Source: an uncultured Acidobacteriota bacterium
Lineage (GTDB): Bacteria > Acidobacteriota > Terriglobia > JAJPHL01
Length of the DNA: 50,420 bases
Assembly: GCA_964601345.1 (NCBI GenBank)
Contig: CAZRND010000001.1
Location: 1 to 50,420, forward strand
Reading direction: 5' to 3'
Position 1 is the first letter of the stretch; the number at the start of each line of letters is the position of its first letter. The notes below the pieces were generated by a model that saw only the letters and a list, made by a program, of their open reading frames with translations, did not search any database and was not told the DNA's origin. Position numbers and translations under genes: made by a program. Positions 3,216 to 26,338 of this stretch are shown piece after piece.

Positions 3216-3940
3216 AAATCTCCGCCGCCATCATCACGCTCAACGAAGAACGCAACCTGCCCCGCCTGCTCGAATCACTCACCTGCGTCGACGAAATCGT
3301 TGTGGTGGACTCGGGCTCGACAGACCGGACAAAGGAAATCGCCGAACGTTATGGCGCGCGCGTCATCGCGCACGACTGGCCCGGCTATGCGGCGCAGAAA
3401 AACTTCGCCGCTGCGCAAGCAGCGAACGACTGGATATTGTCCCTCGACGCCGACGAAGCCCTCACGGAAAATCTGCAGGCCGAGATCCTGCAGCTCAAGG
3501 AAAAAGAGCCGCAGGTCGTCGGATTCCGCTTCCCGCGCCTTGCGCAGTATCTCGGACGCTGGATTTTTCACAGCGGCTGGTATCCCGACAGCAAGATTCG
3601 TCTCTACGATCGCCGCCGCGGCCGCTGGGTCGGAGATTACGTCCACGAGAGCGTCACAGTGGACGGCCCGGTGGCCGAGCTGGCCGGGCCCCTGAACCAT
3701 TTCACTTGCAACAGCCTGGACGAGCATCGCCGCACGCTCGAGCGTTACACGTCGCTTGCGGCGCAGGAGTTGCGCGCCCGCGGTGAACGCGCCGGAATCG
3801 CGCGACTCGTGCTCTCGCCGCCTGCGACGTTTCTTCGGAGTTATATCCTGAAGCTGGGATTTCTGGACGGCTATCCGGGATTCCTGATTGCCGTGATGGC
3901 GGCTCGGTACGTCTTCAAGAAGTACTCGAAAACGCGATGA
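3212..3940 (+). CDS. Family 2 glycosyltransferase
   Basis: 4-nt overlap with hutH. N-terminal ISAAIITLNEERNLPRLLESL...VVVDSGSTDRT...SLDADE (DxD) is typical GT2. Confidence 0.8.
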   Translation: MKISAAIITLNEERNLPRLLESLTCVDEIVVVDSGSTDRTKEIAERYGARVIAHDWPGYAAQKNFAAAQAANDWILSLDADEALTENLQAEILQLKEKEPQVVGFRFPRLAQYLGRWIFHSGWYPDSKIRLYDRRRGRWVGDYVHESVTVDGPVAELAGPLNHFTCNSLDEHRRTLERYTSLAAQELRARGERAGIARLVLSPPATFLRSYILKLGFLDGYPGFLIAVMAARYVFKKYSKTR

Positions 3941-4830
3941 ACATCCTGCACATCGACCTCGGGCGGGAAATGCGCGGCGGCCAGTATCAAGCGCTGATCC
4001 TGATGCAGGCGCTCGCGGAGCGAGGTCACCGCCAGTTGCTGCTCACGGCCAAAGGTTCGCCGTTGCTCGGCGCCGCGCGCGAGGCGGGGATCGAAGCCGC
4101 GCCGAAGGGCTGGCGGATGCCCGCGGAATTTGACTTGATCCACGTGCACGACGCCAAGGCACATTCGCTCGCCGCACTCCAGTCGGGCAAGACACCGGTG
4201 GTCGTTTCGCGGCGCGTCGCATTTCCGGTGAAGCGCGGAGTGGCGTCCCGATGGAAATACGGTCGCGCCGCGCACTATATCGCAGTGTCCGATTTCGTCC
4301 GCGGCCAGTTGGCGCGAGCCGGCGTTCCGTCTCGGAAGATCACGGTGATCTACGATGGCGTGCGGATGCCGAAGGCAATCCGAAAGCAGTCGCACGGTAA
4401 GTTCGTTGCCGGAGCGATCGCCGCGCCGTCGGAGAAGCCGGTGCGCATCTTTCTTGAGGCAGCGGCCGCCCGCCCGTCGATCGAAGGGCGCGTTGGCGAC
4501 GCCGCTGAAATCCAGAACTTTGACGTGCTCGTCTATCTTTCGAGCTCTGAAGGCCTGGGCTCGGGCATCCTCCTGGCGATGGCCCACGGGATTCCGGTGA
4601 TCGCCAGCAACGTCGGCGGCATCCCCGAGATCGTCGCTCACGAGAAGACCGGGCTGCTGGTCGAAAACACCGTGGATGCGGTCGGCCGCGCGCTCGATCG
4701 CCTCGCGGCCGATCGCGCTCTCTGCCGTACGATGGGAGCCGCGGGCCGCGATTGGGTGGCGTCGAACGCCACCGACGAGATCCTCGCCGCGCGTACCGAA
4801 GCCGTATACCGAAAGATACTGGGATCGTGA
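3937..4830 (+). CDS. GT-B glycosyltransferase (family 4/1-like), short form
   Basis: 4-nt overlap with the GT2 gene. C-terminal SSSEGLGSGILLAMAHGIPVIASNVGGIPEIV matches the E-x7-E region of GT4 enzymes. Confidence 0.7.
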   Translation: MNILHIDLGREMRGGQYQALILMQALAERGHRQLLLTAKGSPLLGAAREAGIEAAPKGWRMPAEFDLIHVHDAKAHSLAALQSGKTPVVVSRRVAFPVKRGVASRWKYGRAAHYIAVSDFVRGQLARAGVPSRKITVIYDGVRMPKAIRKQSHGKFVAGAIAAPSEKPVRIFLEAAAARPSIEGRVGDAAEIQNFDVLVYLSSSEGLGSGILLAMAHGIPVIASNVGGIPEIVAHEKTGLLVENTVDAVGRALDRLAADRALCRTMGAAGRDWVASNATDEILAARTEAVYRKILGS

Positions 4831-5814: not shown

Positions 5815-7110
5815 ATGGGGCTGCTGACCCTTCTGCTTTTCATCCTTGTGGGTGGAATTTTCCTGATCTATCGAACGTTTCGACAGGCGGCTCGCGACGC
5901 CGGCGGTCTGAAGGAGAAAGTTCCGCGCACCGATAATCCTGCCTTCGTGATGGCCACGTTTCAGGGAGTCATCAAGCAGATGCGCGAGCAGGAGAAGGAA
6001 CTCGAACGCCTGCACCAGCTCGAGCGGCAGCGCGCCGAGGAGAGCCAGCAGCTCGCGGCCACCATCATGAGGAACATGGCCACGGGACTGGTCATGCTGA
6101 ATTCCCGCGGCATCATTACCGAGTGCAATCCGGCCGCCAAGATCGTGCTGGGACATCAACTACTCGTGGGACGCAGCTATCGCGAGACGTTTTGGCCCGA
6201 TTACCACGCGGGCGGAACCGAGCCACCTCCCCCGGGCATGCTGAGCTTGGAAGATTGCCTGAAAACGGGCAGCACGGTGCGCCGCATGCAGATGACGTAT
6301 CGCGCCCCCAACTCCCAGAACATGGTCCTGGGAATCGGCTTCTCGCCCATCCGCGCGGCCGACGGGACCATTGGAGGCGCCATCCTCTTGCTGACCGACC
6401 TCACGGAAATCACCGCGCTCCAGCAGGAAGTGCGCCTCAAGGAACACATGGCGGCGCTCGGCGAGATGGCCGCCGGCATCGCTCACGAGTTCAAGAACTC
6501 GCTCGCGACCATCTCGGGCTACAGCCAGTTGCTCGAAAGCGCCACGCTCGAAGAGACGCATGTCTTCGCGGCGAAGATCGTCAGCGAGACGCAGTTCCTG
6601 GCCAAGATCGTCAACGAGTTTTTGAATTTCTCGCGGCCTCTGAGCCTGGTGGCCGCGCAGGTGGACACCCGCCGGCTCGTGGAAGACAGCTTCGCGGAGA
6701 TCCACGACCGCGGAAAATTCCCCGGCGTGACGCTCGAGATGACCGGCGAGTTCCCCACCATCCAGGCCGACGCCACCCTGCTGCGCCAAGCCTTTTCAAA
6801 CCTGCTGCGCAACGGATGCGAAGCCATCGGCGACAAGAAGGCGGGCCGCCTGCTCGTGCAGTCGCACCTCGAACAGGAAGACGGCCGGCAGATGGTGAAA
6901 ATGAATTTTCAGGACGAGGGCGGAGGAATCGAGGCGGGCAATCTCGACAAGGTTTTCATCCCGTTCTTTACGACGAAGAACTCCGGAACCGGCCTGGGGC
7001 TGCCGCTGGTCCACAAGATCGTGGTCAATCACAATGGAAAGATCGCCGTGGAGAATGTTCCAGGAATGGGCGCGAGTTTCACGGTGACGCTGCCGCTTAC
7101 GACCGGCTGA
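5815..7110 (+). CDS. Membrane-anchored PAS sensor histidine kinase (NtrB/AtoS-like H-box)
   Basis: ATG 5815 precedes the TM helix MGLLTLLLFILVGGIFLIY. It has a PAS-like segment (MATGLVMLNSRGIITECNPAA), H-box HEFKNSLATISGYSQLL and ATPase G-boxes (DEGGGI, GTGLGLPLV). Confidence 0.8.
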   Translation: MGLLTLLLFILVGGIFLIYRTFRQAARDAGGLKEKVPRTDNPAFVMATFQGVIKQMREQEKELERLHQLERQRAEESQQLAATIMRNMATGLVMLNSRGIITECNPAAKIVLGHQLLVGRSYRETFWPDYHAGGTEPPPPGMLSLEDCLKTGSTVRRMQMTYRAPNSQNMVLGIGFSPIRAADGTIGGAILLLTDLTEITALQQEVRLKEHMAALGEMAAGIAHEFKNSLATISGYSQLLESATLEETHVFAAKIVSETQFLAKIVNEFLNFSRPLSLVAAQVDTRRLVEDSFAEIHDRGKFPGVTLEMTGEFPTIQADATLLRQAFSNLLRNGCEAIGDKKAGRLLVQSHLEQEDGRQMVKMNFQDEGGGIEAGNLDKVFIPFFTTKNSGTGLGLPLVHKIVVNHNGKIAVENVPGMGASFTVTLPLTTG

Positions 7111-8194
7111 GCACCCTCGCCGCCGTCAAGGCATAGGCGGCCGCGCAATCGGCGATATTTTTCACCGGAACAAACTCATTCGGCCCGTGCGAAACGGACA
7201 GCAGTCCCGGCCCATAGGCCAGCGCCGGAATACCCTGCCCGGCGTAGAAACGCGTCTCGAGTAGCCCTGGACACATCGCCAGCTCCGGACGCTTCCCGCT
7301 GACGGCCTTTACCGATTCCTGAAGCGCCATCGCGAGAGGATCTTCGGGCGCAGTTCCCGAAGCGCGTCCTTCCTGCAGGATCTCGACCTTGAGGCCGCGC
7401 AGAATCTCCATCAGCTTTGCTCTTTCAGCGGCCAGGTCTTCGCCGGGATTCGTGCGCCGATCGATGGTGAAGGAAAACTCGGCGGGAACGGCGTTGAAGC
7501 TGGTGCCGCCCTCGGCGCGACCGCCGAGCATCAGGATCGACCCGCGCGCTTCCACTTCGCGCTTCAGGTTGAGCAGAGCGCCTGCCACTGGAATCATTTT
7601 CTCGAAGGCGTTGATGCCGAGGTGCTGAAGTCCGACGTGCGCGGTCTTGCCGGGCACGGTGACGCGGAGGGAGATCGCGCCGCGGCTGGCGTTCCAAATG
7701 ACGCCGCCGGTCGGTTCGGCGGTGAGCATGCCGATGCCGCCGCGCCCGAGCACGCCGGCGCGCAACAGAGCTTCCGAACCTCGCCGCCCGCCGGTCTCCT
7801 CGTCGGGAACAAAGCACAATCCGATCCGACCGTCGAGCTCGACACGCGATTTCTCGATGGCCTTCACCGCGCCGATCATGGCCGCGAGGCCCGACTTCAT
7901 GTCCGATGATCCACGACCGAAGAGGTTCTGTCCCTTGACCGTCGGACGGAATTGACTCGGCGACTGCGCAGGCACCACGTCGTAATGACCGTGGAAGTAG
8001 AGCGTCCGCTTGCCGCGACCATGGAATGCCAGGAGGCACTCGCCGTGCCGCTCGCTCTTGAGTCCAAGGCGCCGGAGGCGGCGTTCCAGTTCGGCGCGGC
8101 AAGGTTTCTCGTCCGGGATAGCGACGAGCCGGCGCGTGATCTCGATCATCTCGCGGCGCAGCGATGCCACCGCCGCGAGAATGCGCTCGTTCAT
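7097..8194 (-). CDS. M20 family metallopeptidase (ArgE/DapE-like deacylase)
   Basis: HGHYDVVPA, FGRGSSDMKSGLAAMI and VPDEETGG motifs. The 3' end overlaps the convergent kinase gene by 14 nt. Confidence 0.8.
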   Translation of the reverse strand: MNERILAAVASLRREMIEITRRLVAIPDEKPCRAELERRLRRLGLKSERHGECLLAFHGRGKRTLYFHGHYDVVPAQSPSQFRPTVKGQNLFGRGSSDMKSGLAAMIGAVKAIEKSRVELDGRIGLCFVPDEETGGRRGSEALLRAGVLGRGGIGMLTAEPTGGVIWNASRGAISLRVTVPGKTAHVGLQHLGINAFEKMIPVAGALLNLKREVEARGSILMLGGRAEGGTSFNAVPAEFSFTIDRRTNPGEDLAAERAKLMEILRGLKVEILQEGRASGTAPEDPLAMALQESVKAVSGKRPELAMCPGLLETRFYAGQGIPALAYGPGLLSVSHGPNEFVPVKNIADCAAAYALTAARVLSRS

Positions 8195-18029: not shown

Positions 18030-19361
18030 TTGCTGGGAGGGCCTCTTACGAACGAACATCGCAAACGACTGCCGGTGTGGCGCCTGCTGTTCCTCGCCCC
18101 CGTGGGACTGGCGATCATCATTCCGGCGACTTGGGTCCTCGTCAGTTGGACGGCGAAGCCTCTTTTTCCAAAGCCGGAGGACGTGCCGACCGCCATGCAT
18201 TCGGCGCCTCCCGCCCCGTGGGCCGGAACGGTGGACCAGGCGCGGCAGATCGTCCGCGCGAGTGTCGCCGGGAAAAATCTGCCGGGCCTTTCGGTGGCGG
18301 TCGGTATCAACGGGAATATTGTTTGGGCAGAAGGCTTCGGGCTCGCGGATCTCCCCTCCAACGTGACGGTCACGCCGGATCACCGGTTCAGGACCGGAAC
18401 CGCTTCCACGGTGCTCACTTCGGCGGCGGCCGGCCTGCTGCTGCAGCAGGGCCGGCTGAAACTCGGCGACGAAATTCAAACCTACGTGCCCGCGTTTCCC
18501 AAGAAGCAGTGGCCTGTAACGCTGCGCGACGTGATGGGGCATACGTCCGGTGTCGTCGGCTACGACCGCGACCGCGGACCGATTTTCAACCAGCACTGCG
18601 AGCGGTTGGCGGATGCGCTCCAGTACTTCGCGGGAGACGCTCTGGTGTCCAAGCCCGGCACGCAATTTCGCTTTTCCAGCTCCAACTGGATTTTGGTGAG
18701 CGCGGCGGTCGAAGCCGCCGCGGGCCAGCCGTTCCTGACGTTCATGCGGGAGAAGATCTTCGAGCCATTGGGCATGCGCGACACCGTCCCCGAGCCCGCG
18801 CCGAACCGCGAGGGAGAAGACTTCCCGGGCTTCATTGCTATCCGCGAGCTGATCTACGATCCGGGGGCGATTCGCGGCAGCGGCGAGGACACCACGCGGA
18901 AGCCCGGGCCGGACCAGGCCTCGCCCTACTTCACGAGATTCAGATCGAATCCGACGTACGGCTGGCACACGGCGCGCCTGCTCGACAATACCTGCTACGG
19001 CGGAGCGAGCGTATTCCTCTCCACGCCGTCTGATTTGGTGCGCTTCGCGATGGCGATGAATAGCGGCAAGCTGCTCGAGCCCGCGACCGTCGCCTTGCTG
19101 CAGACTTCGCAGCGGCTGGCATCCGGAGAGGATACCGGCTACGGTCTTGGCTGGAAAGTGAAGACGGTTTCGCTGGCCGGAAAACCCACGCGCATGGTCG
19201 GCCACGACGGCGATTCACTGGGTGGAATGGTGGCGTCGCTGATGACCTTTCCAGATTACGCGATGGCGGTGGCAGTCACGTCGAATATCTCTTTTGCGGA
19301 TACAGCTTCGATTGCGGAGCGAGTCGCGCAAACGTTCGCCGCGCAGGCGAGGGGGAGATAG
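18030..19361 (+). CDS. Beta-lactamase-fold (class C / serine hydrolase family) protein with degenerate catalytic motifs
   Basis: Family hallmarks: LPGLSVAVGINGNIVWAEGFG, MGHTSGV, YGLGW and GHDGDSLGG. However, the expected SxxK reads TAST/STVL and the expected YxN reads SSN. Start uncertain (TTG 18030 or GTG 18075). Confidence 0.7.
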   Translation: MLGGPLTNEHRKRLPVWRLLFLAPVGLAIIIPATWVLVSWTAKPLFPKPEDVPTAMHSAPPAPWAGTVDQARQIVRASVAGKNLPGLSVAVGINGNIVWAEGFGLADLPSNVTVTPDHRFRTGTASTVLTSAAAGLLLQQGRLKLGDEIQTYVPAFPKKQWPVTLRDVMGHTSGVVGYDRDRGPIFNQHCERLADALQYFAGDALVSKPGTQFRFSSSNWILVSAAVEAAAGQPFLTFMREKIFEPLGMRDTVPEPAPNREGEDFPGFIAIRELIYDPGAIRGSGEDTTRKPGPDQASPYFTRFRSNPTYGWHTARLLDNTCYGGASVFLSTPSDLVRFAMAMNSGKLLEPATVALLQTSQRLASGEDTGYGLGWKVKTVSLAGKPTRMVGHDGDSLGGMVASLMTFPDYAMAVAVTSNISFADTASIAERVAQTFAAQARGR

Positions 19362-19873
19362 GTGCTTTGCGATGAACGCAGTCCTGCTGTAGACTTCTAG
19401 AGTGGATGCTGAGGGCTCTGGATGCTTCCTATGGCTACAATTTCGACTACTGCGAGTGCGGTCGGTTTTTGCCCAGAACGCTAGGAGCGTGGTAGGTGGC
19501 AGACTTTATCTACATCGACAACTCCAACCTATTCATAGAGGGCAAGAGAGTCAGCGCAGTCGTCCGCGGTCTCGCCATGAACATCTACGAGGCTATGAAC
19601 AACCGCATAATCGACCATGACTACAAATTGAGCTTCGGTCGCTTACATGAGTTCATCGCCGGTAGTGTCAAGTCCCAAATTGCGAGAGCGGTCTTGTTCG
19701 GCTCACGTCCTCCTCCGGACGATAGTATCTGGACTTTCGCCAAACGCGCAGGATTCGAGCTGGTGCTTGAAGACCGTAACGTTGCGAATAAAGAAAAAAA
19801 GATCGACACGGGTATAGTCGCAGCCATGACGAGGGATGCTTACAAGAAGGCCGATCCCGCGAACGATACGATG

Positions 19874-19878
19874 GTACT
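19874..19878. repeat. Target-site duplication GTACT (left copy)
   Basis: An identical pentamer directly abuts both IS ends. Confidence 0.7.
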
Positions 19879-19905
19879 TGTAGTGCACCCCTCTAAAACT
19901 GGACA
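19879..19905 (+). repeat. IS left inverted repeat
   Basis: TGTAGTGCACCCCTCTAAAACTGGACA, against the reverse complement of the right end TGTAGTGCACCCCGTTAAACTAGACA. Confidence 0.8.
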
Positions 19906-19946
19906 GTTCATTCTAGTATGATCGGGGCCTCCAAACAGGAGGCAGG

Positions 19947-20231
19947 ATGAGCAGGAAAGCAGCGCTTCAGAGAAGTCCGGAACTGAAACTACAGATCGTA
20001 ATGGAAGGGTTGCGGAGCGGCAACATCGCGGAGACTTGCCGCAAGCACGAGATCGCAGCGAATCTCTATTACCGCTGGAAGGACGAGGTGGAGAAGGGCG
20101 CGCTGGAAGCCTTGGGCGGCAAGCGTGGCGTCGCCGATTCCGAAAAGGATCAGCGGATTAGACAGTTGGAGCGCACGCTAGGCCGCAAGAGTCTGGAGAT
20201 CGAGATCCTAAAAAACGTTCTGGGGGACTGA
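19947..20231 (+). CDS. IS3-family transposase OrfA (HTH_Tnp_1-like)
   Basis: 94 aa. ...IAETCRKHEIAANLYYRWKDE... followed by a leucine-zipper-like tail LERTLGRKSLEIEILKNVL. GGAGG SD upstream. Confidence 0.85.
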   Translation: MSRKAALQRSPELKLQIVMEGLRSGNIAETCRKHEIAANLYYRWKDEVEKGALEALGGKRGVADSEKDQRIRQLERTLGRKSLEIEILKNVLGD

Positions 20232-20252
20232 GCTGTGGCGCAACTCACTCCC
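20210..20252 (+). promoter_or_regulatory. Programmed -1 ribosomal frameshift signal of the IS (slippery A AAA AAC plus downstream stem-loop)
   Basis: Heptamer A AAA AAC lies at 20210-20216 in the orfA frame (cta aaa aac). The -1 frame is open from here into orfB. After a 7-nt spacer there is a stem GGGACTGAG (20224-20232) / CTCACTCCC (20244-20252), 8 of 9 bp, enclosing the orfA stop. Confidence 0.55.
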
Positions 20253-20326
20253 AAGCTCGTGCGCTGGTCGAAAACGGCTATCGACCTACCGTCGTCGCCG
20301 AAGCTCTGCAGATCAGCCGCTCCAGC

Positions 20327-21103
20327 TTGTATTACCGCAAGCAGGAGCGCAGCAGTCGCGCCGATCGATCCTTCGATGACCGCATCATCGAGGCCTGCGG
20401 CGAGAAACCGGCTTACGGCTATCGCCGCGTTCAATGGTGGCTGGAACATCACCGTGGTTTGCGGCTCAATCGCAAACGTGTTCTCCGCGTCATGCAGGAA
20501 CGCGGCTTGCTCGTTCACAGCCGAAGATTGCGCGCGCGACGCCGCAAGGAATGGAGCAAAGTGATCGTCACTACGCCCAATCAAGTCTGGCAATCCGACC
20601 TGACCAAGATCTGGGCTGGCCCCAACTCCGGCTGGGCTTACCTGGTGTCGATCATCGACTGCTTCACCCGCGAGATCGTCGGCTGGGATCTTTCTTCCCG
20701 CTGCCGAACCGACGATGCCCTCAACGCTTTGAACCAGGCTGTCATCGAGCAGTTGCCTTTCGGATCGCGCGGAACTGGGCTGACCTTGACCACCGACAAC
20801 GGCACGCAGTTCACTTCTTCCCGTTTCATGGAAGTAGTTTCTTCTCTTGGCATTTTCCATCGCCGCACCGCGTTTCATCACCCGGAAGGCAATGGCTACA
20901 TCGAACGTTTTCACCGCAGCTTGAAAGAAGAGGAGGTCTGGATCAACGAATACCAAAACCTGGATGAAGCCCGCCGTTCCATCGCCCGCTACATCCAGGA
21001 GTACAATAACGACCGGCCCCATCGGGGGCTGGGCGATCGTACGCCTCACGAGGCTCGTCAGGCGTTTACCATTGACCTAAAATCCGAGGCCCTGAATGTC
21101 TAG
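20327..21103 (+). CDS. IS3-family transposase OrfB (DDE integrase core), presumably expressed as an OrfAB fusion
   Basis: The frame is -1 relative to orfA. DDE triad candidates are WQSDLT, LTTDNGTQF and HPEGNGYIERFH, followed by YNNDRPHRGLG. The stop TAG lies inside the right inverted repeat. Confidence 0.9.
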   Translation: MYYRKQERSSRADRSFDDRIIEACGEKPAYGYRRVQWWLEHHRGLRLNRKRVLRVMQERGLLVHSRRLRARRRKEWSKVIVTTPNQVWQSDLTKIWAGPNSGWAYLVSIIDCFTREIVGWDLSSRCRTDDALNALNQAVIEQLPFGSRGTGLTLTTDNGTQFTSSRFMEVVSSLGIFHRRTAFHHPEGNGYIERFHRSLKEEEVWINEYQNLDEARRSIARYIQEYNNDRPHRGLGDRTPHEARQAFTIDLKSEALNV

Positions 21104-21122
21104 TTTAACGGGGTGCACTACA
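21097..21122 (-). repeat. IS right inverted repeat
   Basis: See the left inverted repeat. 13 of 13 outer nt are identical; the inner part is imperfect with one indel. Confidence 0.8.
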
Positions 21123-21127
21123 GTACT
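21123..21127. repeat. Target-site duplication GTACT (right copy)
   Basis: Identical to 19874-19878. Confidence 0.7.
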
Positions 21128-21446
21128 CGTCGCTGGCGATGGCGACTTCGTTCCCGCTGTCCGTCAGATCGTCGAGGACGGCTACAAGGTTGAAGTCGTC
21201 TTCTGGAATCATGCATCGAAGGAACTCAAGGAACTTAGGGGGTTAGCCAAGTTCATCTCGCTAGACGAACACCTAGAGTATCTTCGTCTCAAATAAAAAG
21301 TACGCCCGACCCAACGCGTAGGTCCTAGCGGCTCTGGCCCGTGAGCATGGATGCAGGCGGTGCATTTGAGGCTAAGCCTTCGTAGTGCCGGACTCCCCGC
21401 TAGACAGAGAGGAGAGGCGGCTATTCTTTTCTGGAAGAGAATCGGG

Positions 21447-21551
21447 GTCGGCCTGGTCTGATCCATGGTTCGAACGAACGTCATTCATACGACTGCAACG
21501 TGCCGAACCGACCGTCACCTTCAGAACATAAGGAGGGTGGGGACAGATCAG
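21447..21551. repeat. Island repeat, copy A (~105 nt, imperfect internal dyad)
   Basis: It aligns along its whole length with 23693-23798. Shared blocks: GTC.GCCTGG.CTG, GTTCG, CGTCATTCAT, CGAACCG.CC, GAACAT, AGGAGGGTGGGGACA, ATCAG. The outer arms CTGATC / GATCAG and inner arms ATG(G)TTC / GAACAT can pair. Confidence 0.75.
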
Positions 21552-21739
21552 TCGTGACGCGTTTTTTTCGATGGCACACCACTCTCATTTCGGCCGCCGA
21601 AGACCATTCGGGCGAGTTCGTCGCCCAACCGGCCGGCGACCTCCGGATCACGCTCGTTCCGGAAGCGCTTGGCTAGGGTAAGGAACTGCTGCTGCTTTCG
21701 CTTCTCCGCGGCGATTTCCTTCTTGCTCACGCCCTTCAT
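21548..21739 (-). CDS. Small basic hypothetical protein (63 aa)
   Basis: MKGVSKKEIAAEKRKQQQFLTLAKRFRNERDPEVAGRLGDELARMVFGGRNESGVPSKKTRHD. It looks helical and charged, has no SD, and its stop codon is the conserved CTGAT edge of repeat A. The GTG-extended 115-aa version looks non-coding. Confidence 0.4.
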   Translation of the reverse strand: MKGVSKKEIAAEKRKQQQFLTLAKRFRNERDPEVAGRLGDELARMVFGGRNESGVPSKKTRHD

Positions 21740-21745
21740 AGCGCG

Positions 21746-21751
21746 ATTATG
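21746..21751 (-). promoter_or_regulatory. -10-like hexamer CATAAT exactly 6 nt upstream of the small-ORF ATG (possible leaderless transcript)
   Basis: The minus strand reads CATAAT CGCGCT ATG. There is no SD, and only a weak -35 (TTCGCC at 17 nt). Confidence 0.25.
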
Positions 21752-21814
21752 CACCGGAACAATTCGAAGGCGAATTAGAAAAAAGGAATCGATTCTCTGG
21801 CAGCGGAGCTGCTT

Positions 21815-21843
21815 CTCTAAGGTGCCACTTTGGCACCTTAGAG
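21815..21843. repeat. Perfect 13-bp inverted repeat / hairpin with 3-nt loop
   Basis: CTCTAAGGTGCCA ctt TGGCACCTTAGAG. It lies in the 316-nt spacer between the 516-aa gene and the small ORF. No adjacent U-tract on either strand. Confidence 0.7.
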
Positions 21844-22055
21844 GAGTGCAGAGGCCAGTAGAGAACTGTCGAGGAAGCCATGCGTCAGAGCGCACTGCGC
21901 TTATTCAGGACCTGCCGCACGTTAATGAAACCGCTCTGGTTCGGCTGTCGGATCACCAAGAGCTAGAATTGAATAATGCGCTCCGACACCCGCTAGCCCC
22001 TGCAATGCAAACGAGGAACCCCATAGCAGGACCGGGCTACTGCTTCTTTCTAGGA

Positions 22056-23606
22056 TTAATGGCTCCTCGGTTCCTGTTCCTGCAAATGGCTCAACCGCCA
22101 ATTGCGGCTCTTGAGCAGCCGCATGAAATAGGCGTCGCAAAACAGCTTCATGAATGAGGCTTCTTTGAGCGTCACCACGGCACCTTCGACGTTCTTTGAT
22201 TCGAAGCGCCCGCAGAGATCGGCAAACTGATCACGTTCGTCCATCTTGGGAAACATCTCGTCAAGGAAACGTAACATTGAATCCCGGAAACTCATGCCTT
22301 CCTTCCAATCGCCGTTCTCGGCCATTAGCGCTCTTAGGCATTCGAAGAAGTTTCCAAATACCATGCTTTCGCACTGCCAGTGAATATCGTTCAACGACAG
22401 CAACGTAAGCCCGCCAGCGTAATAGTTGAACGCTGTGTGCTGGTCGCTCTTATCCGGACCCGGCAGCGCTGCGAAGCACGCAGCGACACGGTTGAGGTCT
22501 TCCGCCGTTAGCACGCGGTTCTCGCCCCAGTCAACTTTGAGGACAGGAATTCGATCCAAGACGAGACCCATGCCTTTTTCAAGATCATGGAGGCTGTCGT
22601 AGTAGCGACTGATTTGCTCAGGCATTCGCCACCACCAAAAGCCCATCGTTCCGATATTTAGCGCGACGACGAAGTGGCGGGCGAGGCCCCAGCCGAAGTT
22701 CCAGAGCCCCTCGACAGGAACGTTGTCCTTAAGAATAAGTTCGACGATAAGTTCGTTCTTCTTCGCAACCTTCAGTCCGATCCCTTTGACGCTCATGTTC
22801 CACTGCGTAAGTTCTTTTCCTCGCAAGGAATGAGATGCGCTGATGATCCGTATGCGCAGCCGCCATTTCTCACTCTTGCCTTCAGTTGGGAGGTTGCGAC
22901 TCCTGCGCAGTTCCGCTTCGGCGGCGGTGCGGGATTCGGCGTCCGCATTGTCGAACTGCTGTCTCAGCCACGTTACCCACGCCGTTGAGCTGTGCAGTTC
23001 AGCAAGCTTGGCCATCGAGCCCCCAGAGAAGATCATCCGTCTTTTTTCCGGGTCTTCGGTTGACCTAAGAAACCAGCTTTGTAGGTCGACTTCCTTCTCC
23101 GGAATTTGATCGCGGAGCTTCTGGGCCTCCGCCATACCTAGGCGCATTGCGGCTAGTTCGATCAGTTTGCTGCACTGCTCCGCTGTGATGGCCTCCTCGG
23201 GAATGGTCAGACCGTCTTCGTCATTCTGGACATAAAGACCCGCCAGCCTCGTCGAATGAATGGACGTCGCCATGCCTGTGAGTTCCTCAAGGGCTTGTCC
23301 TGTCAAGGGCTGATAACCGAAAATCCCGCCAAAGAAACACCAGAAAAGTTTCTTAATGTGATCTTGTGTATGCTTGGCGGGCCATGCCGGCCCGTCGGGG
23401 CGCTTCGAGGCGAGACACTGGACTGCAATCAACTCCCGGCGCCCAATCTCTTCGAGCGCGAGCGCAGCAAGATGATATGCCACATTCGGGTGATTAGCGG
23501 CCTGAACCGCGCGCGCGGAATCCAACAAAGCGTGGGCATGGTCGATGCAGGCCTTCATCGCCGCAATCGTATTGTCGTCAATCCGGCGCTCTCCATTCGT
23601 AGCCAT
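22056..23606 (-). CDS. 516-aa protein: N-terminal AbiV-like (HEPN-superfamily) domain fused to an unassigned C-terminal half
   Basis: This is a long ORF in the lower-GC region. The N-terminus ...CIDHAHALLDSARAVQAANHPNVAYHLAALALEEIGRRE..., then KHTQDHIKKL and STRLAGLYVQ, resembles the AbiV family pattern (helix pair, EE(I/L)GK, H..K, R..LYV) as I recall it. Residues ~245-516 matched nothing I recognise. Confidence 0.5.
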   Translation of the reverse strand: MATNGERRIDDNTIAAMKACIDHAHALLDSARAVQAANHPNVAYHLAALALEEIGRRELIAVQCLASKRPDGPAWPAKHTQDHIKKLFWCFFGGIFGYQPLTGQALEELTGMATSIHSTRLAGLYVQNDEDGLTIPEEAITAEQCSKLIELAAMRLGMAEAQKLRDQIPEKEVDLQSWFLRSTEDPEKRRMIFSGGSMAKLAELHSSTAWVTWLRQQFDNADAESRTAAEAELRRSRNLPTEGKSEKWRLRIRIISASHSLRGKELTQWNMSVKGIGLKVAKKNELIVELILKDNVPVEGLWNFGWGLARHFVVALNIGTMGFWWWRMPEQISRYYDSLHDLEKGMGLVLDRIPVLKVDWGENRVLTAEDLNRVAACFAALPGPDKSDQHTAFNYYAGGLTLLSLNDIHWQCESMVFGNFFECLRALMAENGDWKEGMSFRDSMLRFLDEMFPKMDERDQFADLCGRFESKNVEGAVVTLKEASFMKLFCDAYFMRLLKSRNWRLSHLQEQEPRSH

Positions 23607-23612
23607 GGTCGT

Positions 23613-23618
23613 AATCTA
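23613..23618 (-). promoter_or_regulatory. -10-like hexamer TAGATT exactly 6 nt upstream of the 516-aa gene ATG (possible leaderless transcript)
   Basis: The minus strand reads TAGATT ACGACC ATG. There is no SD and no convincing -35. Confidence 0.2.
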
Positions 23619-23692
23619 CCATTGGGGAATACGCAACCGGAACAGGCAACCCGGTTCAGCCTGACCTCGCCCTAGCTTCCTAGAAACTCGGT

Positions 23693-23798
23693 GTCAGCCT
23701 GGCCTGTCCCCCTTGTTCGGACGGGCGTCATTCATGCCGTTTGGCGAACCGGCCCGCTAGCTTAGCTTCCGAACATCCAGGAGGGTGGGGACAATCAG
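23693..23798. repeat. Island repeat, copy B (~106 nt, imperfect internal dyad)
   Basis: Same orientation as copy A. The arms CCTG..CTGTCCCC.TTGTTCGGA and TTCCGAACA...GGGGACA..CAGG can pair. It begins (minus sense) at the stop codon of the 448-aa gene and fills much of the gap to the 516-aa gene. Confidence 0.75.
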
Positions 23799-25141
23799 GC
23801 TGGCCCTTGTTTCCCTTGTTCCTTGCTTGCCGTTTCAGCTTCTGGTGGAGGACCCGTTAGAAGCGGAATACGGTGGTACCGGTAACGATCCATGTCTTTC
23901 AGCGCGGCGCGAACCCGATCCCTCGTTTTCGCCGAACGCCAGAGGCGAGACACCGTTGACCCAAACATCACGAGCCCTCCCATGATGCTGGCGGCGGTAC
24001 CCACCACATTGGCCCCTGGCGCGAGACTGGACAGGACTATCCCAAAGCAAGCTGCTGCGAAGCCAACACTTGTCGCTAGCTTCTCGATGCAGGCGACCAT
24101 TGCTCGCGGGCTCTTCGGGTTAGCGGCGGCGAATCCGTCCAGCGACGCCGTCCACGCCTCGACGAGCTTGGCATCGTCGACTGTCTCTTCGTTGGCTATC
24201 CTTGACCGAACCGCCGCAATCACAGTGCCGACACCCTTGCACAAGACGATCTTGCCGATTTTCCTAGTTCCAAGTGGGGTCCACAAGCCCGGAGGTTCCT
24301 CGTCGCTTGTTTCGCGAAGTGGAGGCTCGGGCAAGAAGGGGGTGAACACTCCCTCTGCCCGCTCAGCGTCACTGTAAACAGCTGCAAACACCGACTGCGC
24401 CAGTTTGCGAACCTCTCCCTCAATTGCCCCAAATTTCTTTGTTTGCGCCAATTGGTACACGCGCGACCGAGGTGACTCAATCGACCCAATGATCTTTTTG
24501 CCTTCATCCCGTATGGATGCGGCCGCCTTCTCGGGGTCGGCAGCCAGTTCGCTAAATTCCACAAGTAGGCCGGGGCTGCTGAAGTCAAAGTCGTTCGCGG
24601 ATTGCGTGCTCGCACATATGTGGCACGCTTCCAGAAATTCCTTGGCGAACAACTGTGGAATTTGGGCAGACCAAGCTTGTTCTCGTCGGGCCACAGAGTT
24701 TCTGTCCAGGAGTTCGTCGAGTTTCTTATGAAACGTCAGGAAAGGCTCTGTGTCTGGATCAAAAGGTCGTCCCTGATAGCTGCTTTGCCTCTTCACGTGC
24801 AAGGCCCGGGCTCGGATCGGCTGCTTACGCGACTTCTCGCCCAATTCGTTGTCCGGGTAGTTCTCGGGGCGCTGAGTATTGATCCTGACACCGCCAGTGG
24901 AGCAGATTTCCTCCAGTAGATCGAACCAGTGCGGATTCCTTAGCAACGCCTTCGCGAGGGGACGATTTACTGCGATGTGCTGGTCGGGTATCAGAACTTC
25001 CTTGTATCTCATCGACGCTGCAATAAGCTGAATTAATATGACCTCAGCGGGCAAAGCCTCATAAACTTGCGGATCCCAGTGAGTAAGGACGACCTTGCGC
25101 CGTCCGGATCCAGCTGAAGAACTTGTCGGTCTTGTGTCCAT
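23795..25141 (-). CDS. 448-aa hypothetical protein with a C-terminal two-helix, Gly/Ala-rich membrane hairpin
   Basis: Long ORF, with GAGG ~10 nt upstream of the ATG. Residues ~355-396 (nt 23954-24079) read LATSVGFAAACFGIVLSSLAPGANVVGTAASIMGGLVMFGSTV, followed by a basic tail. No family recognised for the ~350-aa N-terminal part. Confidence 0.6.
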   Translation of the reverse strand: MDTRPTSSSAGSGRRKVVLTHWDPQVYEALPAEVILIQLIAASMRYKEVLIPDQHIAVNRPLAKALLRNPHWFDLLEEICSTGGVRINTQRPENYPDNELGEKSRKQPIRARALHVKRQSSYQGRPFDPDTEPFLTFHKKLDELLDRNSVARREQAWSAQIPQLFAKEFLEACHICASTQSANDFDFSSPGLLVEFSELAADPEKAAASIRDEGKKIIGSIESPRSRVYQLAQTKKFGAIEGEVRKLAQSVFAAVYSDAERAEGVFTPFLPEPPLRETSDEEPPGLWTPLGTRKIGKIVLCKGVGTVIAAVRSRIANEETVDDAKLVEAWTASLDGFAAANPKSPRAMVACIEKLATSVGFAAACFGIVLSSLAPGANVVGTAASIMGGLVMFGSTVSRLWRSAKTRDRVRAALKDMDRYRYHRIPLLTGPPPEAETASKEQGKQGPA

Positions 25142-25163
25142 TTGTTCAGAACCTCTACCGAGA

Positions 25164-25192
25164 AATATTAAGCCCTTCTGTTGAATTGTCTA
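25164..25192 (-). promoter_or_regulatory. Possible sigma-70 promoter of the 448-aa gene
   Basis: The minus strand reads TAGACA, 17 nt, AATATT. It lies ~22 nt upstream of the ATG at 25141. Confidence 0.3.
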
Positions 25193-25267
25193 CACTGAGT
25201 TTTAGGAGCGCTTGGATAGAATGTGATTTGCGAGAAACAGTTGCCGGGCTGACTAACCCTCGCCGGA

Positions 25268-26338
25268 CTACGGTTTCTTCTCTTCCGGAGTGTCGAACGT
25301 GATCTTGGATTCGGCGCTGAACTTGCGATAGAGGCGGAACTCGATTTCGTTTTTCGTCGTCAGGCGGCCTTCGGCCATCAGCACCGTCGCTCGCTTCGGC
25401 AGCAGAAAAATGATCCCGGATATGTCCACGAACTCGTACTCCAGCGTCGTGTCCGCCATGTTCACCGGGAAATCGCGCGGGATGTCGATCGCCGTCATCG
25501 TCAGCTTCAGCACCTGCGCGGACTCGCGGTCCACCCACACGCGCCCCCGGTAGGCCGGGATGATCGTTTCCTTCTTGTTGTAGGTGATGTGCCACTGCGA
25601 GTGAATCTGCTGCACGCCGTACACGTAAACTTCCGCCGCGCGACCGTTGATCGCCGCCTGCTTCGACCACGCAAACTTCGTTTCCGTGGCCGGCTCGAAA
25701 ATCCCGAGCAGCAACGACCCGAACTCGCCCGTGCTCACCGCTCCGTTCAGCGCGTCGTAGCTCTTATCCACAAGCTGGTTGTTGACGGTGTTGATCTGGT
25801 AGCTCTCGCCCTTGCCGCGCTCATAACTCAGCCGCGCCTGGATCGTGTCGAGAAGACGCCACGAGCCTCGTCCAGTCGGATCGGCATGACGCTTGGTCTG
25901 CTGCACGCAAATGAAGCTCGGCAGATTCGCGGTGTAGGACAGCGCGCGGTTGCGGGCGCGCTCGAGCAACTCGTCCTGACCCGCCACATTGAGCGGCGGC
26001 GGCAGCGGGATCTGCTTCTCCGGCTCCGGAATCGACGTGGCCGCGGCCAGCGACGGCGGCGCCTTCTGACGCGTCTCGGACGCCTTGGCGAGCGCCGCGA
26101 GCACGCCATCGGTGGCGCCTGCTTTCTTGAACGAGCGGCGCAGCGGTTCGGTCAGCCGGAAATCGACGCCGCGCTTCTGCACCTGTTCGATGATGTTCGC
26201 TTCCCCGATCGTCTGGATGTAGCGCAGTTGCAGGTAGAGCTGGTCTTCGGTGAACGGAGGACCAACGGTCTCCTTCGGCAGTTCCTGCGCCAGCAGAGAC
26301 AACGCCGCCACCGCAGCGAGCAGGGTAAGGAACCTCAT
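25268..26338 (-). CDS. Secreted hypothetical protein (356 aa)
   Basis: Signal peptide MRFLTLLAAVAALSLLAQ. High-GC codon usage like the flanking core genes. No family recognised. Confidence 0.6.
   Translation of the reverse strand: MRFLTLLAAVAALSLLAQELPKETVGPPFTEDQLYLQLRYIQTIGEANIIEQVQKRGVDFRLTEPLRRSFKKAGATDGVLAALAKASETRQKAPPSLAAATSIPEPEKQIPLPPPLNVAGQDELLERARNRALSYTANLPSFICVQQTKRHADPTGRGSWRLLDTIQARLSYERGKGESYQINTVNNQLVDKSYDALNGAVSTGEFGSLLLGIFEPATETKFAWSKQAAINGRAAEVYVYGVQQIHSQWHITYNKKETIIPAYRGRVWVDRESAQVLKLTMTAIDIPRDFPVNMADTTLEYEFVDISGIIFLLPKRATVLMAEGRLTTKNEIEFRLYRKFSAESKITFDTPEEKKP

Follow-up and report, generated by a model that had tools for sequence, protein, structure and literature searches.

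The window analysed in this work, that is, the whole stretch of 50,420 nucleotides (nt) at positions 1 to 50,420 of contig CAZRND010000001.1 (assembly GCA_964601345.1, from an uncultured Acidobacteriota bacterium), carries on its minus strand a gene (22056..23606) coding for a 516-aa protein, hereafter referred to as long AbiV. It is firmly supported by the analyses reported below that this protein consists of an AbiV-family HEPN domain fused to a conserved, family-specific module, and that its gene represents a solitary, horizontally mobile, and probably leaderless cassette. On the basis of the analogy with the AbiV toxin of Lactococcus, we suggest that long AbiV might act as a single-polypeptide AbiV-type ribonuclease (RNase) whose C-terminal module has a regulating or sensing role, an interpretation for which, in our opinion, the chances of being right and wrong are about equal.

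The Long-AbiV Gene and Its Family

The open reading frame (ORF) proposed by the first-pass annotation, which was made from the letters of the window alone, exists exactly as it had been described: it is complete, it extends on the minus strand from an ATG at 23606 to a TAA at 22056-22058, and the 516-aa protein that it encodes contains all the strings quoted there (ALALEEIGRRE, KHTQDHIKKL, STRLAGLYVQ, KWRLRIRIISASHSLRG, and GLWNFGWGLARHFVVALNIGTMGFWWWRMPEQ). The databases hold 241 relatives of long AbiV at E<=1e-3; the best 120 of these 241 exhibit 48-82% identity, are almost all 500-540 aa long, and align over 93-100% of the query. Strong purifying selection acts on the whole length of the protein, the ratio of nonsynonymous to synonymous substitution rates (dN/dS), computed versus the three closest relatives, being 0.09-0.13 overall and 0.05-0.17 within each of four regions. 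The number of relatives, their near end-to-end alignment, and the low dN/dS values imply that 22056..23606 is a real gene.

An exhaustive search of 1.84 billion cluster representatives (50% identity clusters) with a profile built from the C-terminal module retrieved 580 clusters at E<=1e-3, 282 of them at E<=1e-30. Since almost all the clusters correspond to proteins of 500-540 aa with the module at ~235-505, this module is essentially never found without an AbiV HEPN domain. The extra ~315 aa beyond an AbiV-sized module are conserved family-wide, and the family departs in this respect from classical AbiV, which is indeed a single-domain protein of ~200 aa, as the first-pass annotation had stated (the lactococcal protein has 201 aa; bioRxiv 10.1101/2024.05.05.592566). 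Two variants bear a further domain N-terminal to the AbiV-HEPN domain and the C-terminal module: an XRE-type helix-turn-helix (HTH) domain (HTH_37, E=3.8e-16) in a 630-aa protein (P0124) and an alpha/beta-hydrolase (Hydrolase_4, E=4.5e-17) in a 765-aa one (P0192). The former fusion was counted in favour of a toxin, because toxin-antitoxin loci often carry such domains.

Among the species-representative genomes, the gene is harbored, among others, by Terriglobia, Bryobacterales, Rhodospirillales, Mesorhizobium, Bradyrhizobium, Pseudolabrys, Pelagibius, Rhizomicrobium, Caulobacteraceae, Burkholderiales, one gammaproteobacterium, and one verrucomicrobium; the family spans Acidobacteriota, Proteobacteria, and Verrucomicrobia, with a patchy distribution. 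Where the database entries are given a name, this is “AbiV family abortive infection protein” or “hypothetical protein”. The assignment to AbiV is therefore not new in itself, the family being already databased under the name of its N-terminal domain, and the long architecture is common among these entries. We found no paper describing the long form. What is undescribed so far is this architecture as a distinct and widespread branch, together with a C-terminal module that has no detectable relatives, the absence of an RNA or protein partner, and a conserved leaderless promoter.

The N-Terminal AbiV-Type HEPN Domain

The profile-matched core of the AbiV-type HEPN domain embeds residues 14-154 (23145..23567, minus strand). 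Over these residues the protein matches Pfam PF18728 (HEPN_AbiV) with E=1.1e-16 and 61.8 bits (curated cutoff 27.1); it also matches NCBIfam TIGR04498 (AbiV_defense) with E=3.1e-14 and 53.5 bits (cutoff 27), and the PADLOC AbiV profile with E=3e-7. When a family profile was compared with all the PDB sequences, it matched only the lactococcal AbiV entries 9bj5, 9bj6, and 9bj7 (E 1.2e-4 to 7.6e-4), and these matches cover profile positions 5-150 only. The AlphaFold2 (AF2) model of the full 516 aa has a mean predicted local distance difference test (pLDDT) of 74.5 and a predicted template modelling score (pTM) of 0.55, the pLDDT of the N-terminal domain being mixed. In a Foldseek search this model matched the 9bj7, 9bj6, and 9bj5 chains with probability 0.9-1.0 and a target template modelling (TM) score of 0.45-0.57, as well as the HEPN proteins 2hsb, 1wol, and 1ufb (probability 0.9-1.0; 0.99 for 2hsb); the weakness of the E-values (0.03-0.9) is explained by the use of the entire 516-aa model as query and by the mixed pLDDT of the N-terminal domain. 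The AbiV/HEPN membership proposed by the first-pass annotation is thus supported by curated profile cutoffs that are exceeded and by AbiV structures that are matched both by sequence and by Foldseek. The extent that it had assigned to the domain, residues ~10-215, is slightly generous, in that the profile match stops at 154; by length, the lactococcal 201-aa AbiV would reach residue ~185-200 of long AbiV.

The lactococcal AbiV (the abiV1 product, 201 aa) is a metal-independent RNase that degrades rRNA (bioRxiv 10.1101/2024.05.05.592566), and we compared its functional residues with those of the long proteins using a diverse set of 103 aligned full-length representatives (median identity to the query 32%), to which all the counts reported here refer. 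The EEIGR motif (E52 E53 I54 G55 R56; 23439..23453, minus strand) aligns in the HMMER alignments to IIEEVGK of 9bj5; it is equivalent to lactococcal E66-E67..K70, so that E67 and K70, the most conserved residues of the lactococcal dimer interface (bioRxiv 10.1101/2024.05.05.592566), correspond to E53 and R56. E52 is found in 102/103 sequences, E53 in 101/103, and G55 in 97%, and position 56 is either K or R in 102/103. The segment KHTQDH (K78-H83; 23358..23375, minus strand) is aligned with 91-RNHKSKH-97, the catalytic segment of the lactococcal protein, in which the changes R91A and R91A/H97A led to a loss of the rRNase activity (bioRxiv 10.1101/2024.05.05.592566). H83 is the equivalent of lactococcal H97 and is His in 102/103 sequences; the equivalent of R91 falls, according to the HMMER alignments, at the variable position 77, which adjoins K78. 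Lastly, H117-x2-R120-x4-Y125 (IHSTRLAGLY; 23232..23258, minus strand) places R120 at the canonical HEPN motif position, with R120 kept in 102/103, Y125 in 103/103, and H117 in 97/103 sequences. The most conserved N-terminal residues (E52/E53/G55, H83/K86, and R120/Y125) lie within the three strings by which the first-pass annotation had recognised the AbiV pattern.

The canonical HEPN Rx4-6H motif at the end of helix 3 is absent, as R120 is followed by LAGLYV with no His. AbiV has been described as a HEPN variant in which the basic residue at the canonical position is kept, the next His is lost, and an alternative His is present in the helix-2/3 insert (PMC3710099). R120 and H83 fit this AbiV/AF0298-type variant site, because the basic residue is kept, the downstream His is lacking, and an alternative His is present. 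Based on this comparison, H83 and R120, together with the less conserved K/R78, may represent the active-site equivalents of long AbiV; across the AbiV family, neither the R nor the H of the lactococcal motif is strictly conserved (bioRxiv 10.1101/2024.05.05.592566).

Two Rx4-6H-like strings, RAVQAANH (residues 32-39) and RIISASH (residues 253-259), had been named in the first-pass annotation as possible HEPN active sites. Neither of them has this role, because R32 and H39 are not conserved, and R253 and H259 are located outside the HEPN domain. RAVQAANH was ruled out by its lack of conservation among the representatives, R32 varying between K, R, and E and H39 being mostly replaced by L. RIISASH is conserved (R or K occupies position 253 in 96/103 sequences, and His position 259 in 102/103) and is probably functional, but not as a HEPN Rx5H motif: both models place it on a beta-strand and the loop that follows, within a ferredoxin-like subdomain and not on a HEPN helix. 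The alignment of homologues, which had been proposed as a check on the invariant Arg and His residues, identified R120 and H83 instead, both in the strings quoted as the AbiV pattern.

The Linker and the C-Terminal Module

According to the secondary structure of the model, the HEPN domain is followed by a helical linker (residues 166-240; 22887..23111, minus strand) with the invariant residues W178, W210, W213, and E232. The C-terminal region modelled alone with AF2 (pLDDT 81.9, pTM 0.81) consists of two parts, namely subdomain C1 (residues 241-345; 22572..22886, minus strand) and subdomain C2 (residues 366-511; 22074..22511, minus strand), the latter being all-helical in the AF2 models and more variable. 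The order of the C1 elements, as read from the DSSP string, is predicted to be beta-alpha-beta-beta-alpha-(beta), which would correspond to a ferredoxin-like topology; a low-confidence Trp-rich loop (GFWWW) comes after the C1 fold. The loop after strand beta1 carries the SHSLR motif (S258-H259-x2-R262; 22821..22835, minus strand), which overlaps the RIISASH string. Residues K247, W248, H259, N270, N317, G322, D341, Y396, F420, and K487 are conserved in at least 95% of the representatives and S258, R262, D407, and D491 in 85-95%, with S or T at position 258 in 102/103 and R or K at position 262 in 97/103. The mean pairwise identity is 38% for C1 (241-330), 37% for the HEPN core, and 24% for C2. 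Judging from this degree of conservation, the C-terminal module is clearly functional.

The first-pass annotation had been unable to assign the C-terminal half, and residues ~241-512 remain without a family in any of the sequence or structure libraries searched. When 21 members were compared with Pfam, none gave a match in this region, even with the threshold relaxed to E<=5; NCBIfam, PADLOC, and PHROGs gave none; and in the search of the PDB sequences with the family profiles A1 and A4 (E<=10) the region was left unmatched. A Foldseek search with the C-terminal model returned as best E-values 0.39 (PDB) and 0.22 (BFVD), with probabilities mostly below 0.3; the sole recurring resemblances, weak and of low probability, were with small ferredoxin-like folds (IS200 TnpA, RRM, and acylphosphatase-like). 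No well-known enzyme domain with a housekeeping role was recognised in this half of the protein.

Other identities were considered for this region and discarded. The presence of a second, diverged HEPN domain was rejected, since hhalign comparisons of the N-terminal HEPN with C1, C2, and the linker gave a probability <1% and no HEPN was found among the Foldseek hits. The reading of ISASHSLRGKE as an MNT-like nucleotidyltransferase motif has no supporting profile, and the second strand lacks the acidic catalytic residues. A kinase-like fold was suggested by low-ranked kinase hits at TM 0.12-0.17 with probability <=0.05, and no profile supports it.

The main rival of a regulating or sensing module is a C-terminal half that represents a second catalytic or RNA-binding domain, i.e., a nuclease, an RNA-modifying, or an RNA-recognition domain built on a ferredoxin-like/RRM-like fold, in which case both sites of the protein would act on one RNA target. 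This idea would account for C1 being as conserved as the HEPN core, for the presence of K247, H259, N270, N317, G322, and D341 among the most conserved positions and of S258, R262, D407, and D491 just below them, for the strong purifying selection, and for a predicted topology with a conserved His just after beta1, and ferredoxin-like folds are the only structures that the module even weakly resembles; nevertheless, no Foldseek match has E<0.2, Pfam, NCBIfam, PADLOC, PHROGs, and the PDB provide no profile match, and the likeness of C1 to RAMP/Cas6 or HUH enzymes is topological only, no Cas6 structure being found among the Foldseek hits of the C-terminal model. On balance, we judge a second catalytic or RNA-binding domain to be rather unlikely, and in the following we continue to consider the module as a candidate regulator or sensor.

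Natural Interruptions of the Gene

In some loci, the long-AbiV gene is interrupted in the linker: by a 4-nt tandem duplication (~6600-6616) in L017/L018, by a frameshift (~6630-6650) in L022, by an in-frame TGA (~position 50-115) that is identical in three samples (L026-L028), and by a frameshift (3940-4003) in L029, where a 215-aa AbiV-HEPN ORF (PF18728, E=1.3e-5) is located directly upstream of a 311-aa C-terminal ORF. All four independent interruptions fall at linker residues ~200-230 and leave intact an HEPN ORF of ~200-230 aa and a C-terminal ORF of ~300 aa. Being confined to the linker, with both halves intact, they therefore argue for the existence of two separable modules, and they could be natural two-gene forms, in which the two modules may function as separate polypeptides.

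As for the examined proteins that seemed to consist of the C-terminal module alone, P0134 (and probably P0240) turned out to be a contig-end fragment, and P0247 and P0207 derive from interrupted full-length genes.

The Start Region and the Search for an RNA Partner

The start of the gene is preceded by an extended -10 box, TGGTAGATT (23613..23621, minus strand), recognised by reading the sequence and by its conservation, and by a 6-nt spacer, ACGACC (23607-23612, minus strand). The whole arrangement, TGGTAGATT-ACGACC-ATG, occupies 23621..23604, and a Shine-Dalgarno sequence is absent, as the first-pass annotation had noticed. Its description is also corroborated by the other genomes, since TG(C/G)TAGATT followed by 6-7 nt and ATG is kept in 7/7 Acidobacteriota loci examined. 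The similarity at the DNA level to the six closest loci begins exactly 15 nt 5' of the ATG and stops at the stop codon; copies that are about 76-80% identical in DNA have nothing in common beyond these limits. With an extended -10 box so close to the ATG (6 nt away) and no Shine-Dalgarno sequence, the long-AbiV mRNA is predicted to be leaderless.

The lactococcal AbiV requires as antitoxin an RNA, abiV2, which is encoded upstream of it, the two forming a toxin-antitoxin system of type III (bioRxiv 10.1101/2024.05.05.592566). No abiV2-like RNA was detected upstream of long AbiV, where, in the Acidobacteriota loci compared, conservation ends with the 15 nt of the -10 box and spacer. Moreover, the intergenic RNAs on either side of the gene show no significant structure (z=-1.35 upstream and +1.17 downstream), and the flanks contain no Rfam or tRNA matches. 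Since the flanks are neither conserved nor significantly structured and Rfam/tRNA matches are nil, no equivalent of abiV2 is detectable, and there is no conserved RNA partner; an RNA partner may exist that is lineage-specific and not conserved.

Two of the loci, L001 and L003, have ~60 nt in common upstream of the AbiV start (at ~7880-7975 in both), which are absent from the window and from L002. This stretch, CCGTCGGGCTCTAC.CGC ... TCG.CC.TCCGGT.ACGATCCCTGGCGC.GGAG, could have a regulatory function or mark the boundary of a mobile element that both loci share.

Genomic Context

No gene accompanies long AbiV regularly: in an all-against-all clustering of the ORFs of 25 loci, only long AbiV was in common, and no conserved partner gene was found. 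The gene is thus a solitary cassette. In the window, it is located in a low-GC island of ~6 kb (~19200-25400; 53-58% GC versus ~64% in the flanks), which was probably acquired horizontally and which contains an NYN gene disrupted by an insertion sequence (IS), a small ORF, the long-AbiV gene, and a 448-aa ORF. The island is bordered by a beta-lactamase-like gene and a histidine kinase on one side and by ABC transporter genes on the other. At other loci, the neighbours include integrases, DDE transposases, small terminases, a resolvase, and ParB/ArdC-type conjugative-element genes, as well as defence genes (a DRT reverse transcriptase-helicase, a GajB-like helicase, PD-T7-4, a methyl-directed restriction enzyme, QatC, mad8, HipA, and SIR2); this is a listing of individual loci.

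These data bear on two further explanations. According to the first, the protein might be a housekeeping or stress RNA-processing enzyme of soil bacteria that has the AbiV HEPN fold and no role in defence or as a toxin. The chromosomal location of the gene, of which tblastn found no copy in plasmid and phage collections, the metabolic genes flanking some of the loci, and the purifying selection over the whole length would all fit such an enzyme. Against it stand the patchy distribution across phyla, the neighbours that differ even between copies about 76-80% identical, the location in the window within a low-GC island and next to an IS element, the integrases, transposases, and defence genes adjoining several loci, and the repeated independent interruption of the gene, which is typical of dispensable and costly genes. 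Being patchily distributed, set in changing neighbourhoods, and repeatedly inactivated, the gene is unlikely to have a housekeeping role, and we assign little credit to this explanation.

According to the second, long AbiV would be a selfish addiction cassette, i.e., a fused toxin-antitoxin that stabilises its host islands with no phage-specific role. Unless the covalently fused antitoxin were cleaved off, differential stability could not bring about post-segregational killing, the gene was not found in the plasmid collection, plasmids being the commonest home of addiction modules, and the only characterised relative is an anti-phage system. So, even though the HEPN toxin domain, the compact and solitary cassette with its own promoter, the mobile contexts, and the XRE-HTH fusion in one variant are what one would expect of an addiction module, we believe that this explanation, too, has only a small chance of being correct, and we retain the idea of an AbiV-type RNase with a regulating or sensing module.

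The other features of the island are as follows. An IS3-family element (19879-21122) splits the NYN gene into two halves, 19496-19878 and 21123-21296 (plus strand); it contains orfA (19947-20231, HTH_Tnp_1) and orfB (20327-21103, rve). Its termini are 19-nt inverted repeats, TGTAGTGCACC.../...GGTGCACTACA, with an apparent 5-bp target duplication, GTACT, and the excision of the IS together with one copy of GTACT restores “...DTMVLVAGDGDF...” of the NYN gene, the C-terminal piece of which matches PF01936 with E=2.3e-8. Immediately upstream of long AbiV, and on the same strand, is the 448-aa ORF (23795-25141, minus strand), which has no match in Pfam, NCBIfam, PADLOC, or PHROGs and is not conserved beside AbiV at other loci; its hydrophobic C-terminus (…VGFAAACFGIVLSSLAPGANVVGTAASIMGGLVMFGSTV…) suggests the presence of membrane segments. 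Downstream of long AbiV lies the small ORF (21548-21895, minus strand), which has no family match in Pfam or PHROGs and is not conserved beside AbiV at other loci either; its C-terminal ~63 aa (MKGVSKKEIAAEKRKQQQFLTLAKRFRNERDPEVAGRLGDELARMVFGG...) resemble a genuine small charged protein.

A Possible Mechanism and Its Significance

On the basis of the comparison with Lactococcus, the following mode of action can be proposed. Residues 1 to ~200 form a complete AbiV-type HEPN module, of the size of the whole 201-aa lactococcal toxin, which keeps the dimer-interface motif (E52/E53/G55/R56) and the putative active-site equivalents (H83 and R120, with H117 and Y125). The HEPN domains of a dimer would cut RNA, rRNA being the substrate in Lactococcus, and the covalently attached C-terminal module would hold the RNase off and set it free upon a trigger, in this way taking over the control exerted in Lactococcus by the separate abiV2 RNA antitoxin. 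Long AbiV would then be an abortive-infection or toxin-type RNase involved in the defence against phages.

Several points weigh against this interpretation. Position 78 is K in 45/103 and R in 17/103 representatives, i.e., basic in ~60%, and, since the Arg equivalent to R91 is not conserved, catalysis may differ or be lost in some members of the family. The conservation of C1, its invariant polar residues, and the low dN/dS look more like those of an enzyme or of a site for a small ligand or RNA than like those of a fast-evolving sensor of phage proteins. Given that the orientation of the domains in the full-length model is uncertain (pTM 0.55), it cannot be claimed that the C-terminal module physically blocks the HEPN site. 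Several loci sit amid ordinary metabolic genes, and the lack of copies in the plasmid and phage collections points in the same direction. Finally, the pattern of the natural splits is partly affected by the way in which the cases came to light, and coincidental pseudogenes, or chance and ascertainment, may explain it alternatively: two of the four splits were noticed through their appearance as proteins with the C-terminal module alone, and other short entries in the databases start at positions all along long AbiV.

AbiV is a classical abortive-infection system that was only recently shown to be an HEPN rRNase restrained by an RNA antitoxin; a module with a regulator/sensor function would represent a second, protein-based control of an AbiV toxin and a new domain for the catalogue of immune sensors. 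Going a step further, we advance as a tentative and somewhat doubtful idea that the C-terminal ~275 aa might be an undescribed domain, possibly with a new fold combination, serving as a built-in switch of the AbiV RNase that replaces the RNA antitoxin. On this idea, long AbiV would combine immune sensor and effector in one protein, mechanistically distinct and widespread among Gram-negative soil bacteria, the conserved pocket of K247/H259/R262/N270/N317/D341 would bind a conserved infection signal (for instance, RNA or a small molecule), and the natural splits would show that the two halves are able to act as a two-protein toxin/regulator pair. The label “AbiV family abortive infection protein” conceals the long branch, the novel module, and the missing partner, and the conserved leaderless promoter arrangement makes this cassette compact, portable, and directly testable.

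Comparison with Known Systems

Long AbiV shares with the lactococcal AbiV the HEPN_AbiV domain, the EExG[KR] motif, the His equivalent to H97 (H83), and the Arg of R-x-x-x-LY (R120...Y125). It differs from it in being 2.5 times longer, with a linker and a conserved C-terminal module of ~275 aa that are lacking in the lactococcal protein, in the equivalent of R91, which is mostly Lys or not basic, and in the extra conserved H117. Moreover, it has no detectable upstream abiV2-like RNA, its promoter abuts the ATG, it is found in Gram-negative soil and aquatic phyla, and the sequence identity between the two is <20%. The abortive-infection phenotype, the phage SaV-type trigger, and the metal-independent cleavage of rRNA have been reported for Lactococcus only.

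With the AF0298/HEPN-T-type proteins (PDB 2hsb; PMC3710099), long AbiV has in common the variant layout of the active site, in which R120 is kept and H83 is the alternative His; those proteins, however, are small, stand-alone, and often paired with nucleotidyltransferases, whereas no such partner accompanies long AbiV in the 25 loci. Similarly, long AbiV does not have the organization of HEPN-MNT (type VII) or of other two-gene HEPN toxin-antitoxin systems, as no neighbour is common to the 25 loci, and the nucleotidyltransferase profiles of Pfam do not match the C-terminal module.

The fusion of an HEPN RNase to a separate domain, with regulation by a ligand, is known from Csm6/Csx1 (CARF-HEPN) and from RNase L/Ire1 (kinase-KEN). 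In long AbiV, the order is reversed, the HEPN domain being N-terminal; no CARF, SAVED, or kinase profile matched and no credible fold match was obtained, and no signal-producing gene is found in the neighbourhood in the 25 loci. The analogy would be a functional one, in the sense that the conserved fused domain could bind a small ligand and, in turn, control the HEPN dimer.

The toxin of CapRel(SJ46) is a tRNA-pyrophosphorylating RelA/SpoT homologue, and hence belongs to a class different from the HEPN RNases. Long AbiV and this fused toxin-antitoxin defence protein (Zhang et al. 2022, cited in PMC13064643) have no kinship in sequence or fold, and the C-terminal module of long AbiV is highly conserved rather than variable. 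The analogy would be a functional one only, in that long AbiV might follow the same proposed logic, in which a toxin at the N-terminus and a C-terminal module that would both restrain it and sense infection are encoded by one solitary gene.

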